A DNA stretch of 64,000 nucleotides, from NCBI GenBank assembly GCA_012799635.1, contig JAAZKW010000003.1:603-64602 (forward strand), written 5' to 3'. The notes under the pieces are model-generated. The model saw only the letters and a list, made by a program, of their open reading frames with translations. It searched no databases and was not told the DNA's origin. This document shows, in pieces, positions 10,262 through 54,613 of the stretch. The stretch comes from Mollicutes bacterium. GTDB lineage: Bacteria > Bacillota_I > Bacilli_A > RF39 > UBA660. Every line of letters starts with the position of its first letter. Position 1 is the first letter of the stretch. Position numbers and translations under genes: made by a program.

Positions 10262-13200
10262 ATGAAAAAAAAGCATTTATTATTTATTTTTATATTTATA
10301 TCTGCATTAATGCTCTTTTTTGTTCCTAAAAATAAGTTAACTACAATTGAATTTAAACCAAATATTATGTTTTATAATCCTTCGGTATATGATAATACTG
10401 AATTTGTTACTAGATGGAAAACGGATGTAAGTGGTGTAAATCCCAATGCAGTAACTTTAAGTTTTAATTTAAAAGGCACAGCTTGGTATGAAGTTTCTTG
10501 GACATGTAATGGTACATATGAGCCAGTGTTTAATCCTATACATACTCATGAATATGCTACGGCAGGTACTTATGATGTATGTATTAGAACTGCTTATCCA
10601 CTTCATTTTTATGCTCCAGGATTGACTGACAATGATAAAGCAAAGCTTTTAGAAGTTAAACAATGGGGAAATATTAAGTGGTCAAGTTTTAGAGAATCTT
10701 TTAAAGGTATGACAAATATGGATATTACTGCCGAAGACATTCCTAATTTATCTAATGTTACTGATATGGCATATGCTTTTGAAGGTGCTTCTAATCTTAT
10801 TGGAAACGAAGCAATGAAAAATTGGGATACTAGTAAAGTAATTAATATGAATAGTTTATTTAGGTATGCTAACAATTTTAATGCTCCAATTGGTGATTGG
10901 AATACGATTAGTGTAACTGATATGAAATTAATGTTTAGTGAAGCCTTTTTATTTAATCAGGATATTGGTAATTGGAAAACTGAAAATGTAACAAGTATGG
11001 CCCATATGTTTTATAAAGCTTCTTCGTTTAATCAGAATATTGGTTCTTGGGATATTAGTGAAAATACTTCTATGCTTTGTATGTTTGAAGAAGCAACTAA
11101 TTTTAATAATGGTGCAGCTGCAGGAGAAGTAGGAGAGCCACTTCTTTGGAACACTTCAAAAGTTACTACAATGCAAAGACTTTTTAGACACGCAAGTAGT
11201 TTTAATTCTCCGATTAATAATTGGGATACTTCAAATGTAACAAACATGATAAGGGTGTTTTCAGGTGCAGCAAGCTTTAATCAACCATTAAACAATTGGA
11301 AAACAGGAAACGTTACTTCAATGAGAGAAATGTTTAGGGGCGCTTCGGAATTTAATCAAAATATTAGTAGTTGGGACATTTCAAAGGTAACAGATTTATC
11401 AAATATGTTTTGGTCTGCTAGTTCTTTTAATAATGGGCAAGCTCCAGGAGAGGAAACAGCACCATTAAATTGGACTACAAGTAGTGTTACTGATATGGCT
11501 TATATGTTTTATTATGCTCCATCATTTAATCAACCACTAAACGGTTGGAATACTTCATCTGTAACTAATATGACAGCTATGTTTGGTTCTGCAACTTCGT
11601 TTAATCAAGATATTGGGAATTGGAGAACTGAAAATGTAACAAATATGAGTAGCATGTTTAACAATGCCTCTAGTTTTAATAATGGTGAAAAAACTAATGG
11701 TGGTAGTAAAGCATTAAATTGGAATACTTCAAAAGTAGAAAATATGAGTAGAATGTTTTATTGGGCAATAACATTTAATCAACCAATAAATAGTTGGAAT
11801 ACTTCTTTAGTTACCACTACCAGACAAATGTTTGAACGTGCAGAAAAGTTTAATCAACCTTTAAGTAATTGGAAAATGGGAAATGTAACTGATATGTCAG
11901 GTATGTTTGCTGCTGCTTTAGTTTTTAATCAAGATATAAGCGGATGGAACACTAGTAATGTAGTTAATATGTCTTATTTATTTAGACTTGCGGGTGATTT
12001 TAATAAAGATATTGGTTCTTGGAATACTTCAAGTGTAACCGATATGTCTTTTATGTTTGATTATGCAACTTCGTTTAATCAAGATATTTCAAAATGGGAA
12101 ATTGAAAGTGTATCAAGAATTAGTTATTTTATAAGTAATTCAGACATGAAGCCAAATAATTATGATAAATTGTTGACTTCTTTTAGTCAGCAAAATATTA
12201 TTTCGGGATTATCCTTAGGAGCTGTTGGTATTTATTATTGTAATGCCAAAACTGCTAGAGATACTTTAACAAATCATCCGAATAATTGGCGTATTAGTGA
12301 TGCAGGCAAAAATTGTCCGCCAGTGGATCTAAAATTATCTGAAAATGAAATATTTGAAAACACTAAAAAGGTAGGTACTATTTCTGCAATTGATCCAGAG
12401 GGTCAAGAAGTTGTATATATATTGATTGATGGAGAGGGTTCTGAAGACAATGATAAGTTTATCTTAGATTATCAAACAGGTAAATTATCATTTAAAGAAG
12501 CCCCAGATTTTGAAAATCCAACAGATATCGGAGAACCACTCACTACAAACACTTATTCAATTCGTGTAAGAGCAATTGATGATATTGGTAGTTATAAAGA
12601 AAAAGTCTTTGTTATAACAGTAAAAGATGCTGATGATGTTCCGCCAGTAATTGAGATAAAGTCTATAACAAAAGATTCTGTTGGTCCAATTACTGATACA
12701 ACAATAGAAATAAGTGATAGATTTTCAATTGCCGATGTAGATGTAACTAGTTTAAGTACCGCTATTGTAGATGATCTTGTTTGTACTCCAAATAATCCAG
12801 AACAAACAGACGATCTTGATTTCCCGTTTGAAAATAAAAATCCTGTAGCAGGTAATCATTTAAAAATTACTTGTACGCTAAGAATAAAATCAACAGGTAA
12901 GTTAGTCGTAATTGCTGAAGATTTATTAGGTTACCAGTCAATTGCTGAAGAAAAAAATTACTTCATTAGTACTTTAGGGCCAGATTTTAAACGAAAAGAA
13001 GTTGATGTAACAAGTAGTGGTAATGATATTAATAATCCGATGTTATATATTGAAATGGTTGATGAAGAAAATATTGATAAAATAGAAATAAAATATATTT
13101 CGCCAACAGGTGTTATTACTGAAAGATATACTGGTCCAAAACGATTACATTTAGATTCAACTGAGATGCCACATCAAATATTTATGACTGCATATAATAA

Positions 13201-48964: not shown

Positions 48965-48993
48965 TTGCTTATCTATATTTTTTATCTTATAAT
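48965..48993 (+). promoter_or_regulatory. promoter placing the transcription start at the xer ATG (leaderless mRNA)
   Basis: TTGCTT 48965-70, 17 nt, TATAAT 48988-93. The ATG is at 49001 and has no Shine-Dalgarno. Confidence 0.5.
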
Positions 48994-49000
48994 ATTATAT

Positions 49001-49876
49001 ATGAATAATAAATACATAGAAAATTATTTAGACTATTTAAAATATGAAAGAAAACTTTCAAAAAACACTTATTTATCTTATAAATATAATTTAAACAAGT
49101 TTTCTTACTTTTTAGGTAATGAGTCTTTGCTTACAGTTACTACTAATAAAATTAGAGCTTTTTTATACGATAGTAATATGAAATCTAGAACAAGAGCTCA
49201 TTTTTTAACTGTAATTAATTCCTTATACTTATATTTAATAGAAAATAACTTACTAGAAGAAAATCCATGTGCTTTAATTAAACTACCTAAACTTGAAAAA
49301 AAACTTCCATCATACTTAACAATTGAGGAAGTAGATAAAATGCTTAATATTAATCCTAAAAAGCCTTTAGACTATCGAAATATAGCTATGCTTGAGGTTA
49401 TGTATGGTAGTGGACTTAGAATAAGCGAAGTGTGTGATATGCTTGTTAGCAATATCGATTTTGATGAAGCTATAATTAGAATAATAGGGAAGGGCAGTAA
49501 GGAAAGAATTGTTCCTATGAATGATAAGAGTATTAATGCTTTAAAAGAATATATTAATAACTATAGATCCTTTTTACTTAAAGATAAAACTAGTGAATTT
49601 GTATTTTTAAATAAATTTGGAAATAAACTTTCAAGAGTTGGTTTCTTTAAAATCGTAAAAAAAATATGTGAATTATCTGGTATTGATAAAGATATATCCC
49701 CACACACGCTTAGACACTCATTTGCAACTCATTTACTTAATAATGGAACTAATCTAAGAGTAATACAAGAACTGCTTGGACACAGTAATATTACAACTAC
49801 ACAAGTGTATTCTCACATATCAAATGAAAGTATTAAAAGAGATTACGATAATCATCCAAGAGGTAAGAATGAATAG
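49001..49876 (+). CDS. XerC/XerD-family tyrosine recombinase
   Basis: N-terminal SAM-like domain (YLDYLKYERKLSKNTYLSY). Catalytic box HTLRHSFATHLLNNGTNLRVIQELLGHSNITTTQVYSH with R..HxxR..Y. 291 aa from the ATG at 49001. Confidence 0.88.
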   Translation: MNNKYIENYLDYLKYERKLSKNTYLSYKYNLNKFSYFLGNESLLTVTTNKIRAFLYDSNMKSRTRAHFLTVINSLYLYLIENNLLEENPCALIKLPKLEKKLPSYLTIEEVDKMLNINPKKPLDYRNIAMLEVMYGSGLRISEVCDMLVSNIDFDEAIIRIIGKGSKERIVPMNDKSINALKEYINNYRSFLLKDKTSEFVFLNKFGNKLSRVGFFKIVKKICELSGIDKDISPHTLRHSFATHLLNNGTNLRVIQELLGHSNITTTQVYSHISNESIKRDYDNHPRGKNE

Positions 49877-50107
49877 ATTCTTTCTAAAGAGTAAGTTAAC
49901 ATAATATATATTATGTGAAGTTATTAATTTTAAATTTAGTCCTTGTTTTTGATATCTTTTAAATTAAATTATATTTACTAGTAATATCTATCTTTTCTAT
50001 AAACGCTATAAAAAATGTTTTTTATTTAGAAAGATTCATAATGATACTAAATTAAACTCATTAATGATTTGTTATAACCTTATTTTATTAAATATAAGGT
50101 ATTTATT

Positions 50108-50139
50108 TATAACCTTATTATATATATTATAAGGTTATA
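50108..50139. other. dif-like near-perfect palindrome (11-6-11)
   Basis: TAACCTTATTA TATATA TTATAAGGTTA at 50110-50137; the arms are 10/11 complementary. A degenerate second copy lies at 50073-50102. It sits exactly at the + to - gene-orientation switch. Confidence 0.5.
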
Positions 50140-50166
50140 TATGCACATTATATATACATAATTTAA

Positions 50167-50189
50167 AAAGTAGGGGATTTCCCTACTTT
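50167..50189. terminator. bidirectional intrinsic terminator between the convergent xer and HTH genes
   Basis: 9-bp stem AAAGTAGGG/CCCTACTTT flanked by A and T runs. Confidence 0.65.
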
Positions 50190-50192
50190 AAT

Positions 50193-50966
50193 TTATATTT
50201 TTCTTGATTCAATTTCCGCAAGCTTTTCTAATATTTCAGCAGCATTTTCATCAGTAACTTCACTATAACCAAGCTCTTTTAATGCTTGAGATCTATTTAC
50301 AATAAGCTGTTGTGTCCTTGATAATCTTTCTTCATTCTTCTGCTCTATATTTTTAATAAATCTTCGTCTTAATTGCGCTACTTTCCCCTTCTCTGGATTT
50401 CCATGATTATATATGTTTAACCCAGAATATAAAATCGCTTCAAATATAAATTGTTGATTTTCATCAAAAGCAAATTCATCATGTTTAATAAAACTATTAG
50501 TTTTAGCTATATATGCTAACATATATTTAATTTCGGGTATATTATCAATTGATTGAAGCATATAATATAAATATCTTACTATAGCATTATTTGTATATCC
50601 CCCTACTATAAGTTTATCTTTAAGTAATTCAATAACATCTGCAAGCAAAATTTTAGCATCTTTATCAAGTCCACTAAAATCCAAACTACTTTCAATGTTA
50701 CCATCTTTTTTTAGATTAGAATTGAGTCTCTTCTCCACTTCTAAAAGGTATGCTGTATCTACTTTAATTTTAGCAAGTGCCTCGTTTGAATCATCATCAT
50801 TTATTCCTAATAATTGTAAAAGTAATAATCTTTTTTCTTTAGGCCACTTATCTAAACTTTCTAGAGATAAGTAATTATATACCATTTGTCTAGATACTCC
50901 TAAATACTTAGCTAACTTCACTTTTGATATTCCAAGCTCTTGTAACAAATCATTTAATACTTTCAT
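50193..50966 (-). CDS. XRE-type helix-turn-helix protein with a ~190-aa C-terminal domain of unknown function
   Basis: LNDLLQELGISKVKLAKYLGVSRQMVYNYLS is an XRE-type HTH. Start is the ATG at 50966 after GGAGG. Confidence 0.75.
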   Translation of the reverse strand: MKVLNDLLQELGISKVKLAKYLGVSRQMVYNYLSLESLDKWPKEKRLLLLQLLGINDDDSNEALAKIKVDTAYLLEVEKRLNSNLKKDGNIESSLDFSGLDKDAKILLADVIELLKDKLIVGGYTNNAIVRYLYYMLQSIDNIPEIKYMLAYIAKTNSFIKHDEFAFDENQQFIFEAILYSGLNIYNHGNPEKGKVAQLRRRFIKNIEQKNEERLSRTQQLIVNRSQALKELGYSEVTDENAAEILEKLAEIESRKI

Positions 50967-51000
50967 AATTACCTCCATAAGTTTTGTTTGACATCTTTAT

Positions 51001-51028
51001 TATACCATTTAACACTTGCTTGTCAATT
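51001..51028 (-). promoter_or_regulatory. promoter of the HTH gene
   Basis: On the minus strand: TTGACA (51023-28), 16 nt, TGgTATAAT (-10 at 51001-06). The -35 hexamer and a downstream TGTCAA form an inverted pair around the -10. Confidence 0.55.
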
Positions 51029-51049
51029 AAATATCAAGCATAATTTAAA

Positions 51050-53965
51050 TTATGTTTCTTTTGTTTCTAGTTTTACTGAAACTAATTTAGATACCCCACT
51101 TTCTTCCATAGTTATTCCATATAATATATCAGCATATTCCATCATTTTCTTTTTGTGGGTAATTAAAATAAATTGCGAATCATTTTTTATTTTTGATAAA
51201 TATTCTCCAAACATATGAACGTTTTCTTCATCAAGAGCGGCCTCTGCTTCATCAAGGACAATAAATGGTGCTGGATTAACATTTAAAATAGCAAATATTA
51301 AACATATTGCAGTAAGAGATTTCTCACCGCCAGATAAAGATATAATTGAATTGAGTTTCTTTCCAGGAGGAACCGCAAAAACATCAATACCAGTATTTAA
51401 TAAGTCGTTTTCATCACTTAATTTTAAAATACCGTTGCCACCTTTAAACATAACTCTAAATACTTTAGAAAACTCACTTGATATTTTATCAAAAGACTTT
51501 TTAAACTTTTCTTTCATAATTTCATCCATTTCTAAAATCACATTATTAAGTTCTTCTAAAGAAACTTCTAAATCTTCCTTTTGATGAGTTAAAAAGTCAT
51601 ATCTTTTACGTATTCTATCATATTCATCAATACTTCCAATATTTACTTCCCCTATTTGCTTTAATTTACTTTTTAAATTACTTACTTTAGATCTGGCAAT
51701 TTCTTCATCAACTTCAAGGTTATAGTTACTAAAAGCATATTCGTAAGTTAGATTGTAATCTTCGGATAAGTTAGTTATTAAATTATCAATCTTTATTTCT
51801 AATTTCCCTATTTCTATTTCATTTTGATTAATACTATTTTCAAGTTTTCGATATACGGTATTTTGATTAGAAATTTCTTTTTCCAAAGTAGTTATCTGTT
51901 CGTGCAAATCAAACTTTTGATTTTGCGTTTCTTTTAAATTGTTTTCAAGGATTTCTTTTTCCTTTTCCTTTTCTATGATATCTTTAGTAAGTTTATCGAT
52001 TTTTTTATGAATACTATTTGTTTTAATACTTTTTAAACCATCAATATTGTTTATATATTTATTTAACTTATCTTTTAATGTTTCAATATTTTTGTTATTT
52101 AAATCAATAGTAATTCGATACTCGGCAATCTTTTTCTTATAATCAGTTAACTTTTCACTAATATTATCATATTCTTTGGTATATTTTTGTAAGTCTTCTT
52201 CAAGTAATTTTTTTTGATTCGTTTTAATCTCTAACTCTTTATTAAGACTATTTAAATCACTTTTAAACGTATTATTTATAATACCTCCGGTAATGGAACC
52301 TCCTGGATATGTTATTTCTCCATCTAATGAAACAATTTTATATTTATATTCAGTTAATTTAGAAATATTTATTAGATCATCAGTACTATCAACTACAATT
52401 ACGTTACCAAGCTGATTTTCAATAATGTTTTGATATTTTTTATTGTATGAAACTAAATCAGAAGCTATACCAATGAAACCTTGATATTTTTCAATCATAG
52501 ATATAATTTCATATGAAAATTTCTTTGATTTAATAGTATCTAAAGGAAAAAATGTTGCCCTACCCAACTTTTGTTCTTTTAAATATTCAATAGCTTTCTT
52601 TGCCTTTAACATATCATCTACTATAATAAAATTAGCAGCAGCCCCTAAAGAAGCATTTATAGCGATATTATGAGCTTCATTGGACGTTATAACATCTTTT
52701 ATAGTACCATGAATTCCAAGCAGTCTAGGGTTGTTTAAAATGCTTTTAACAGGCTTTGGTAAATATAGATTATTCTCTATATTATTTTTCTCTATATTAA
52801 TTTTATTTTGAATTTCAAAAATAGCTCTATTTAAATTATTGATTTCGTTATTAAGAGAAGTTAGTTTTATTTTCCTTTTTAGTTCATCATCAGTAATTTT
52901 ATTATAATATGATGTTAGTTTTAATAAATGTTCCTGATTATTATTTAATTTATCTTCTTCGATGGAGATATCTTTTTCAATAGTAAGTTTTTCTTCATTT
53001 AAATTAAGCAAATTATCATCTATTTTACTTTCATCAACACTAAGCTTACTTCTTTCAATATTTATTTGCTTATCACTTTGTAAATTAGATAAAACTTCAG
53101 TTACATCAACGATTTTATGATTTAATTCCCCAATTTTCTCATCAATTTTTATCATTTCAAGTTTTTTACTCTCTAAACCTAGTGGATGAGTTATATTTAA
53201 ATCTTTAATTTCTATAGACATATGATCATTATTTTGTTTTAATACATCAAATTCTTTTTTATATTTATTTATGTCATGAGCAATTAACGCAACATCAATG
53301 CTATCGAGTTCTTTTTTAATATCCAAATATTTTCTTGCGTTTTCTTTATCTTTTTCTAAAGGAGATAAATTCATATCCAATTCTTTGATAATGAGATTAA
53401 TTCTTGTTAAATTTTCCTTTGTTCCATCAAGTTTTTTTAATGATTCTTCTTTTCTTTTCTTATACTTCCCTACTCCAGCTGCTGCTTCAAAAAGTTCTCT
53501 TCTTTCAGATGACTTATTTTCTACTAAAGCTGCTACCTTTCCTTGAGAAATAATATTAAATTTACTAGTTATATCCATAAGCATGTTAGTAACATCTTTT
53601 AGTCTAACTCTAGCATTATTAATATAATATTCATTTTCTCCAGTAGAATATATAATTCTTTTTACTTCAACCTCATTAAACTCACTATCAAGCTTTTTAT
53701 CAGAATTATCAAATAAAATAGCAACACTTGCTTTTTTTAACTTATCTCTTGTTTTTGAACCATTAAAAATAACATCACTCATCTCGTTTCCACCACGAAG
53801 TGATTTAACAGACTGTTCTCCCAGCACCCATAAAATAGCATCAACTATATTTGATTTACCTGAACCATTAGGTCCAACAATCGCACATATCTTTTCTGAG
53901 AAATCTAATTCTATTTTATCGGCAAAGGACTTAAAACCTTGAATTTTAATATTTTTAATATACAT
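51050..53965 (-). CDS. smc: chromosome segregation protein SMC (compact, 971 aa)
   Basis: Walker A GPNGSGKSN, hinge LGRATFFPLD, signature LSGGEKSLTA, Walker B FIVLDEAEAALD. Confidence 0.93.
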   Translation of the reverse strand: MYIKNIKIQGFKSFADKIELDFSEKICAIVGPNGSGKSNIVDAILWVLGEQSVKSLRGGNEMSDVIFNGSKTRDKLKKASVAILFDNSDKKLDSEFNEVEVKRIIYSTGENEYYINNARVRLKDVTNMLMDITSKFNIISQGKVAALVENKSSERRELFEAAAGVGKYKKRKEESLKKLDGTKENLTRINLIIKELDMNLSPLEKDKENARKYLDIKKELDSIDVALIAHDINKYKKEFDVLKQNNDHMSIEIKDLNITHPLGLESKKLEMIKIDEKIGELNHKIVDVTEVLSNLQSDKQINIERSKLSVDESKIDDNLLNLNEEKLTIEKDISIEEDKLNNNQEHLLKLTSYYNKITDDELKRKIKLTSLNNEINNLNRAIFEIQNKINIEKNNIENNLYLPKPVKSILNNPRLLGIHGTIKDVITSNEAHNIAINASLGAAANFIIVDDMLKAKKAIEYLKEQKLGRATFFPLDTIKSKKFSYEIISMIEKYQGFIGIASDLVSYNKKYQNIIENQLGNVIVVDSTDDLINISKLTEYKYKIVSLDGEITYPGGSITGGIINNTFKSDLNSLNKELEIKTNQKKLLEEDLQKYTKEYDNISEKLTDYKKKIAEYRITIDLNNKNIETLKDKLNKYINNIDGLKSIKTNSIHKKIDKLTKDIIEKEKEKEILENNLKETQNQKFDLHEQITTLEKEISNQNTVYRKLENSINQNEIEIGKLEIKIDNLITNLSEDYNLTYEYAFSNYNLEVDEEIARSKVSNLKSKLKQIGEVNIGSIDEYDRIRKRYDFLTHQKEDLEVSLEELNNVILEMDEIMKEKFKKSFDKISSEFSKVFRVMFKGGNGILKLSDENDLLNTGIDVFAVPPGKKLNSIISLSGGEKSLTAICLIFAILNVNPAPFIVLDEAEAALDEENVHMFGEYLSKIKNDSQFILITHKKKMMEYADILYGITMEESGVSKLVSVKLETKET

Positions 53966-53968
53966 ATA

Positions 53969-54613
53969 TTAACCAACACTTTTCTTTATTGCTTCCTTAG
54001 CAGCATTTTGCTCTGCTTCTTTTTTGTTACGCCCTTTACCTACGCCAAGAACGATATTATTTACTACAGCTTTAATAATAAAATCTTCACCCTTTTCAGA
54101 AGGTTCTTCATCTAAAACATACTTAATTGATTTACGATCAGTTTGAACTAATTCTTGTAGTTTTGTTTTATAATCTTCAAAGAAAAGATGATTTTCTTCA
54201 ATACATGGAATAACTATTTTATCTATGTATTCACGACATTTATCCATCCCACATTCTAAATATATTACAGCAAGTACTGACTCAAAAGTATCGGCAATTA
54301 TAGTATCGTTTATTTTACCTAAAAGGCCATTACCTACTCTAATATATTTATCATAACCCACTTTTTTTACATAGTATGCAAGTGCTTCTTCACAAACATA
54401 ACCAGCTCTTTTTTTAGACATTTCTCCTTCTTTTAAATTAGTATTTTTATAATAATATTCACTAGTTAAAAACTGTAATATAGAATCACCTAAAAACTCT
54501 AATCTTTCATAACTTTCACATTTATTTTCATTACTATATGATGAATGTGTTAAAGCTGTCAAAAGTAAATCTTTATTTTTAATAAAAATATTATATTTAT
54601 TCAAAAAATTCAT
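53969..54613 (-). CDS. rnc: ribonuclease III
   Basis: ERLEFLGDSIL catalytic signature and a C-terminal dsRBD (GKGRNKKEAEQNAAKEA). Confidence 0.92.
   Translation of the reverse strand: MNFLNKYNIFIKNKDLLLTALTHSSYSNENKCESYERLEFLGDSILQFLTSEYYYKNTNLKEGEMSKKRAGYVCEEALAYYVKKVGYDKYIRVGNGLLGKINDTIIADTFESVLAVIYLECGMDKCREYIDKIVIPCIEENHLFFEDYKTKLQELVQTDRKSIKYVLDEEPSEKGEDFIIKAVVNNIVLGVGKGRNKKEAEQNAAKEAIKKSVG

Follow-up and report, generated by a model that had tools for sequence, protein, structure and literature searches.

We report that the replication terminus of an uncultured gut bacterium carries a conserved module of paired inverted hexamers (dyads), which is linked to the dif site, distinct from it and mimicked by phages. 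Our best explanation, to which we assign a probability of about one half, is that the dyads serve the Xer/dif locus as an accessory element to which a protein binds. The DNA analysed, hereafter the window, is a stretch of 64,000 nucleotides from a low-GC organism of the same genus as 'Mycoplasma sp. CAG:472'. It sits within an 80-kb contig of a MAG (61 contigs, 1.15 Mb, 88.65% complete) and its base composition is 25% GC. Several short contigs of the assembly (C7, C13, C17, C44, C52, C55 and C60) have 39-60% GC and, given the 25% GC of the genome, are probably contaminants of the bin.

The 316-bp gap between the genes ending at 49876 and 50193 is the chromosome replication terminus. Left of 49.9 kb, 39 open reading frames lie on the plus strand and 3 on the minus strand, the latter being exactly the exceptions that an earlier note on this DNA had named; to the right, 8 lie on the minus strand and 1 on the plus strand. 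GC skew is close to +0.2 before 50 kb and close to -0.2 beyond it, and the flips of skew and of gene strand both fall at about 49.7-50.2 kb. The terminus that the earlier note had proposed from the strand switch is borne out by the cumulative skew, whose maximum over the 80-kb contig lies near window position 49691; the sole large switch of opposite sign in the fragmented 61-contig assembly, a minimum, adjoins dnaA on another contig (C61). The sign of the skew also changes at dif in 13 of 15 relatives.

Within this gap lies the site of chromosome dimer resolution, a canonical XerC/XerD dif (49894-49921, minus strand), where recombination is predicted from the sequence. Read on the plus strand, it consists of the XerD arm AGTTAACATAA (49894-49904), the centre TATATA (49905-49910) and the XerC arm TTATGTGAAGT (49911-49921), which gives the canonical reading ACTTCACATAA-TATATA-TTATGTTAACT on the minus strand. 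The reverse strand, ACTTCACATAATATATATTATGTTAACT, matches the dif of both B. subtilis (24/28) and E. coli (22/28) better than any other sequence of the genome does, the reference sequences being in part those of the earlier note. The site is present in a single copy, begins 18 bp past the stop codon (49876) of a xerD-like gene, and is conserved: the 28-mer is kept in 16 genus genomes, and the core ATAATNTATATTATGTWAA occurs once and with zero mismatches in 15 of 22. The aligned genus 28-mers follow the pattern [ATG]CTTC[GA][TC]ATAA-T..ATA-TTATGTTAAC[TC]. The 18-bp gap between xerD and dif recurs in the closest relative. Among the other 14 genus genomes with a dif match, 11 have the site on one contig with the xerD orthologue, which it follows at 2.7-12 kb (a range also put at 0-12 kb); in one the two are 97 kb apart, and in two they are on separate contigs.

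The earlier note had placed dif elsewhere, at the 28-mer TAACCTTATTATATATATTATAAGGTTA (50110-50137). The palindrome is real, with 26 of its 28 positions self-complementary and no match in 100 shuffles of the window; it starts 234 bp past the xer stop, and the degenerate copy described for it is present at 50072-50100, at a spacing of 35 bp. Its identity as dif does not hold. The asserted likeness to Bacillus dif amounts to 14 of 28 shared positions, six of which are the TATATA centre, a match that is trivial at 25% GC. Compared with the XerC and XerD arms of this genome, the arms of the 28-mer score at chance level (P 0.16-0.6 against random genomic 19-mers), and the far better site at 49894-49921, 190 bp upstream, had been overlooked.

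Three further observations concern the surroundings of dif. A purine-rich stretch of the AAAGAAAC type (49876-49893) adjoins its XerD arm, as it does in most genus genomes. A 13-nt inverted repeat, GATTCTTTCTAAA / TTTAGAAAGATTC, 92% complementary, flanks dif in this genome (49876-49888 and 50025-50037). Finally, one genus genome (G006, locus L109, contig C10) has a second, degenerate dif, AGTTAACATAATATATACTATAAAATTT, about 5.6 kb to the left of the intact one. It comes after the gene that normally abuts dif, and the 5.6-kb insert between the two sites holds two unknown ORFs; the insert looks like an element integrated at dif via Xer recombination.

The enzymes belong to a two-recombinase system, XerD-like and XerC-like, together with FtsK. 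The tyrosine recombinase gene beside dif (48965-49876, plus strand) is a 303-aa ORF, with translation probably beginning at the ATG at 49001. Its product has a Pfam Phage_integrase domain (6.4e-54) and an N-terminal SAM-like domain, and the NCBIfam models score it 315.8 bits for XerD, 290 for XerC and 107 for XerS, the last against a cut-off of 267. Orthologues occur throughout the genus at 63-79% identity. A second Xer paralogue, about 40% identical, is found in nearly all genus genomes and scores higher for XerC than for XerD in the closest relative (295.8 versus 284 bits). In this MAG the XerC-like gene is split across contig ends (C53:8845-9039 and C30:2014-2228), with its first 65 residues at the end of C53; the two contigs share an identical overlap of 127 nt, and C30 ends in a strand fold-back. 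With the N-terminus located on C53 and the overlap and fold-back on C30, the truncated appearance of the gene is an assembly artefact. A pseudogene was rejected for the same reason, the apparent TAA stops coming from the fold-back. FtsK is represented by one FtsK_SpoIIIE match (223 bits), a 749-aa ORF with a gamma-type C-terminal winged-helix motif, as judged by eye. A third Xer-like recombinase of 341 aa (C1:1456-2481, L003) matches the XerA/integron-integrase model best; it lies on a 5.6-kb contig next to an ABC ATPase and a repeat protein, and the other genus genomes gave no third Xer match at the search threshold.

These enzymes bear directly on the proposal of the earlier note of a one-recombinase module like that of XerS or XerH, with the 28-mer at 50110-50137 as its dif. 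The palindromic site and the nearby xer gene speak for such a module, and linkage of site and recombinase gene is indeed a trait of XerS/difSL and XerH/difH. The true dif has this linkage as well, however, and linkage alone does not define those families, which have a single XerS- or XerH-family gene where the present genus has two paralogues in nearly every genome. Given the second, XerC-like paralogue, the XerD-type score of the window enzyme and an XerS score far under the cut-off, the one-recombinase idea was rejected; what the terminus holds is a canonical dif served by a XerC/XerD pair, and we regard the alternative as scarcely credible. The locus instead resembles the E. coli dif and the CodV/RipX dif of B. 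subtilis, with which it shares a 28-bp site of 11-6-11 layout that is unique and falls at the skew switch, two Xer paralogues and the gamma-type C-terminus of FtsK. It differs from these model systems in the position of dif, 18 bp after xerD here and 0-4 kb from it in most genus genomes. No counterpart in them to a dyad module some 200 bp away has been described; in model organisms the chromosomal dif needs FtsK alone and is not known to have accessory DNA.

The dyad module itself consists of two similar units. Dyad 1 (50072-50102) has CCTTAT at 50078-50083 and ATAAGG at 50094-50099, and dyad 2 (50107-50140), which contains the 28-mer, has the same hexamers at 50113-50118 and 50129-50134, with a 10-nt spacer in each case; both are units of the ATAACCTTATT kind. 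Directly after dyad 2 comes an alternating purine/pyrimidine tract with C/G, TATATATGCACAT (50136-50148), and then a G+C-rich hairpin flanked by A and T runs (50167-50189), the terminator of the HTH gene and probably bidirectional. A terminator scan found one terminator at this hairpin, against 0.0 expected. When the whole genome was searched with a dyad matrix, dyad 2 scored best (32.8) and dyad 1 second (27.8), with the next best match at 18.7. Since these are the only two strong matches, the dyads are a dedicated site and no regulon operator.

The dyad pair is present in all 18 genus genomes in which the region is assembled, 177-251 bp from dif. In 15 of 15 genus loci the layout runs from dif through an unalignable AT-rich spacer to CCTTAT-N9-12-ATAAGG and to a second dyad 33-44 bp further on, always on the XerC-arm side of dif. 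Three more genus genomes, with the diverged dif GTTAACATAA-TATCGA-TTAAACGAACC, carry the same module. The purine/pyrimidine tract follows the dyads in 13 of the 18 genus modules, against a genome background of 0.03-0.14 per 420 bp. Gene order in the genus is xerD, three genes that are absent here, dif, the dyads, one gene in six genomes, then HTH, smc and rnc; genes have come and gone immediately outside this pair of sites, on the left of dif and on the right of the dyads, and in no case in the interval that separates the two. Four loci from MAGs (L162, L168, L265 and L275) have three dyads with ACGCG-type purine/pyrimidine tracts in between, from which the repeating unit may be tract plus dyad.

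Within each dyad, the hexamers are the sole conserved part; at outer positions of the arms, pairing is seen in about 50% of cases, and compensatory changes are absent. Conserved hexamers in otherwise uncompensated arms argue against a hairpin and for sequence-specific protein binding. An RNA or DNA hairpin, a variant of the one-recombinase reading and just as hard to credit, does draw on a single-stranded DNA fold that is better than shuffled controls (z = -3.2); the stems, however, show none of the expected compensation, and an Rfam search of 49700-50400 gave zero matches. We also discarded a hairpin-type sRNA, with just 6 bp conserved, uncompensated stems, and fewer sites in a promoter scan than in shuffles.

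Some uncultured gut Bacilli outside the genus carry the module as well, with the dyads on one or the other side of dif. Sixty other genera of the family gave a single match, a terminator hairpin. A scan of all species genomes returned 22 contigs, among them 'Mycoplasma sp. CAG:472' and gut MAGs from rabbit, goat and sheep; 15 of the 22 look like terminus loci, with a dif-like 28-mer 166-250 bp from the dyads. An exact match in a genome of the present genus (G018) was set aside, as it lies inside a coding region. In one clade, with the dif AGGCAACATAA-TATCAA-TTATAGGAAGT, the dyads sit on the XerD-arm side, between xerD and dif. The side thus differs between clades, and the dyad-dif distance of 177-251 bp shows no helical phasing. 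Sites with the widespread dif AGTTAACATAATATCAATTATAGGAAGT or a variant of it number 67, of which 7 have the dyads and 60 lack a CCTTAT dyad. From these counts we take the module to be a lineage-specific addition, and dif to work without dyads in most relatives.

The same comparison bears on which protein binds. The hexamers stay constant where the dif arms vary (XerD arm GTTAAC, GGCAAC or GTTTAC), which makes XerC and XerD unlikely binders. It also weighs on the possibility that the palindromes serve as dif-like sites for XerD only and would unload or stall SMC at the terminus, an effect reported for B. subtilis. Their layout resembles 11-6/7-11 and they lie near dif, xerD and the smc operon, much as extra sites occur near dif at the terminus of a Bacillota relative: at the terminus of B. 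subtilis, XerD-specific dif-like sites (XDS) have been described (PMC11840125, citing Karaboja et al. 2021; such sites are likewise cited in PMC11894783). The best arm match of the dyads, on the other hand, is 6-7 of 11, at chance level against the XerD and XerC arms of this genome (P 0.22-0.6 relative to random genomic 19-mers), and the hexamers do not change with dif even where the XerD arm does. We consider XerD-only sites very unlikely.

Another candidate binder is the neighbouring HTH protein, a 257-aa product with a weak Pfam HTH_3 match and more than 5000 unnamed homologues, encoded at 50193-50966 on the minus strand as the last gene of an rnc-smc-HTH unit. That unit (50193-54613) encodes a highly conserved HTH protein and is a neighbour of dif across the genus; in four genomes of other family or order genera (L116-L119) it ends 15 to about 600 bp from dif. 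The idea that the dyads are the operator or target of this protein, which would act as a terminus-binding factor, draws on proximity and on the N-terminal HTH of the product: in each of the 15 mapped genus loci no more than about 1.1 kb separates gene and dyads, and in three more the two are directly adjacent. The gene also stands beside dif in other genera that lack the dyads, however, with its recognition helix VSRQM[IV]YNY almost unchanged, and it was on this ground that we rejected the protein as binder. Moreover, the dyads lie downstream of the gene, past its terminator, and the AlphaFold model is too poor to help (pLDDT 58.6). The HTH protein is a syntenic dif neighbour and probably not the dyad binder; that the dyads are its target is highly improbable.

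A replication-fork barrier would require yet another factor. Here the unequal dyads would bind a terminator protein and hold termination beside dif, like the half-sites A and B of Bacillus Ter with RTP. The resemblance to RTP/Ter of B. subtilis lies in paired, unequal dyad-like sites at the terminus, and several observations fit: there is a single locus per genome, it falls at the skew switch, the two tandem dyads differ systematically from each other, and terminators on both sides of the dyads in many genomes may shield the site from transcription. Nevertheless, no match to PF02334 was found at E <= 0.1 in this 88.65% complete genome, and so no RTP homologue. Opposed groups of polar sites are absent as well; the genome has one locus, on one side of dif only, with the side varying by clade, and its near-symmetric hexamers have no obvious polarity. 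A barrier also leaves the phage dyads beside a dif mimic unexplained. We think this reading unlikely, none of the observations giving it direct support.

Two other kinds of factor were considered. The dyad-bearing genomes contain no conserved small serine resolvase; a resolvase with a res-like site was rejected, the serine recombinases found being large and of variable copy number, and two dyad-bearing genomes having none. A KOPS-like FtsK word was discarded too, as ATAAGG is barely strand-skewed (372 versus 279). The most strand-skewed words of the genome are of the AAGAAA and GAAGAA types, and are for this reason candidate FtsK-orienting words.

The module recurs, together with a dif mimic, in phages. 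A 35-kb tailed phage contig from IMG/VR (CheckV 88% complete) encodes a collagen-like tail fibre, a CHAP lysin, an HNH nuclease, an XRE repressor, a DnaD-like initiator and Erf, and no tyrosine or serine recombinase was detected in it. The region that separates its late from its early genes holds two dyads, a purine/pyrimidine tract and, 213 bp beyond the dyads, the dif mimic AGTTAACATAA-TATCAA-CTTCAAGAAGT. By hand count the mimic is identical to the widespread dif of related hosts at 24-25 of 28 positions, with the same central region. It is common to nine contigs of the phage family, two of which are the same phage. The metagenomes from which the phage contigs come include IMG 3300021399 and 3300001530. 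Six of the nine have the dyads 177-215 bp upstream of the mimic, and the other three have only a CCTTTA...TAAAGG variant; the phage dyads lie on the XerD-arm side. Against the 22 genus genomes, the dyads are the sole DNA similarity of the 35-kb phage, and no prophage of this family was found in them. Viral matches inside a 406-aa ORF were judged to be chance.

In the phages (L152 at 11270-11370, L192, L194, L198, L199 and L203) the dif mimic lies inside a stem whose sides co-vary between phages, with the pairs GTCTTGAG/CTCAAGAC, TCTCGAG/CTCGAGA and CCTTGAG/CTCAAGG. The stem is followed by a terminator-like hairpin, and the unit stands downstream of a TTGACA promoter and upstream of an XRE gene.

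The phages raise the possibility that the dyads are phage-derived or phage-directed, that is, an attachment region of dif-targeting phages that was left behind or re-delivered, or a phage-related operator, with no role in host dimer resolution. The phage contigs carry the same dyads at the same distance from a dif mimic, and integration at dif would leave phage dyads about 200 bp from the restored site; the genus genome in which 5.6 kb has been inserted at dif, with a degenerate dif at the boundary, fits such a history. Against it, all 18 species retain the hexamers next to a flanking spacer that is randomised, and phage genes are absent alongside. Neither a prophage of the family in the genus nor a phage protein with a host homologue suited to be the shared binder was found. 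We hold a phage origin of this kind to be decidedly unlikely.

We return to the dyads as an accessory protein-binding element. Mechanistically, each inverted hexamer pair would bind a dimer of a host DNA-binding protein, and the resulting nucleoprotein complex would form, at about 200 bp from the core of dif, an accessory arm of the Xer site. By analogy with the accessory sequences of plasmid cer and psi, this arm may contribute to the assembly, alignment or licensing of the synapse made by XerCD. Temperate tailed phages with no detectable integrase, which carry copies of the dif core as well as of the dyads, would thereby exploit that host machinery.

In cer (ColE1) and psi (pSC101), the accessory sequences bind ArgR or ArcA plus PepA and comprise about 180-200 bp of DNA on the XerC side of the core in a fixed geometry. 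The present element is like them in placing dyad-type sites in about 180-200 bp beside a XerCD core, and in occurring on a mobile replicon as well, here a phage. It differs in being chromosomal, in its motif (CCTTAT-N10-ATAAGG with purine/pyrimidine tracts), which by eye is unlike the ARG box, and in its side and distance, which are not fixed.

This variable side and distance, set against the fixed geometry of cer and psi, is one of several points that keep our confidence in an accessory arm at an even level. The others are the 60 of 67 same-core dif sites without a CCTTAT dyad, the three of nine related phage contigs with the variant dyad only, a candidate binder search that yielded no protein, and a search for an integrated prophage or hybrid att junctions that found neither.

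With no integrated copy found, the phage may integrate at dif or may persist as a plasmid prophage that resolves its multimers by host XerCD. Xer-type recombination is used by the IMEX elements CTX-phi, VGJ-phi and TLC-phi and by tailed plasmid prophages (PMC4246890, PMC8026635), the plasmid prophages being the background for persistence (PMC8026635). The phages described here resemble them in lacking a detectable integrase and in carrying a dif mimic. They differ in being tailed dsDNA phages of uncultured Bacilli that have also copied a putative accessory module of the host. Taken globally, these features suggest, tentatively, a new kind of accessory arm for chromosomal dif, one bound by a host factor and copied together with the core by integrase-less tailed phages to integrate or to resolve multimers; we see this fuller proposal as possible but doubtful.

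The dif site is ordinary in itself, and placing it correctly pins down where replication ends and which Xer system operates in a gut lineage that is widespread, uncultured and reduced in its genomes. The unusual feature is the dif-linked element; being conserved, unique in the genome and copied by phages, it suggests an additional level of control, specific to the lineage, over dimer resolution or over the integration of phages by Xer, and the dyad module, at about 75 bp, is a concrete bait for its factor. If the proposal is right, tailed phages that exploit Xer in such a way would be described for the first time from uncultured gut Bacilli, and a nucleoprotein complex would condition or filter Xer recombination at the terminus, as one does at plasmid cer and psi.
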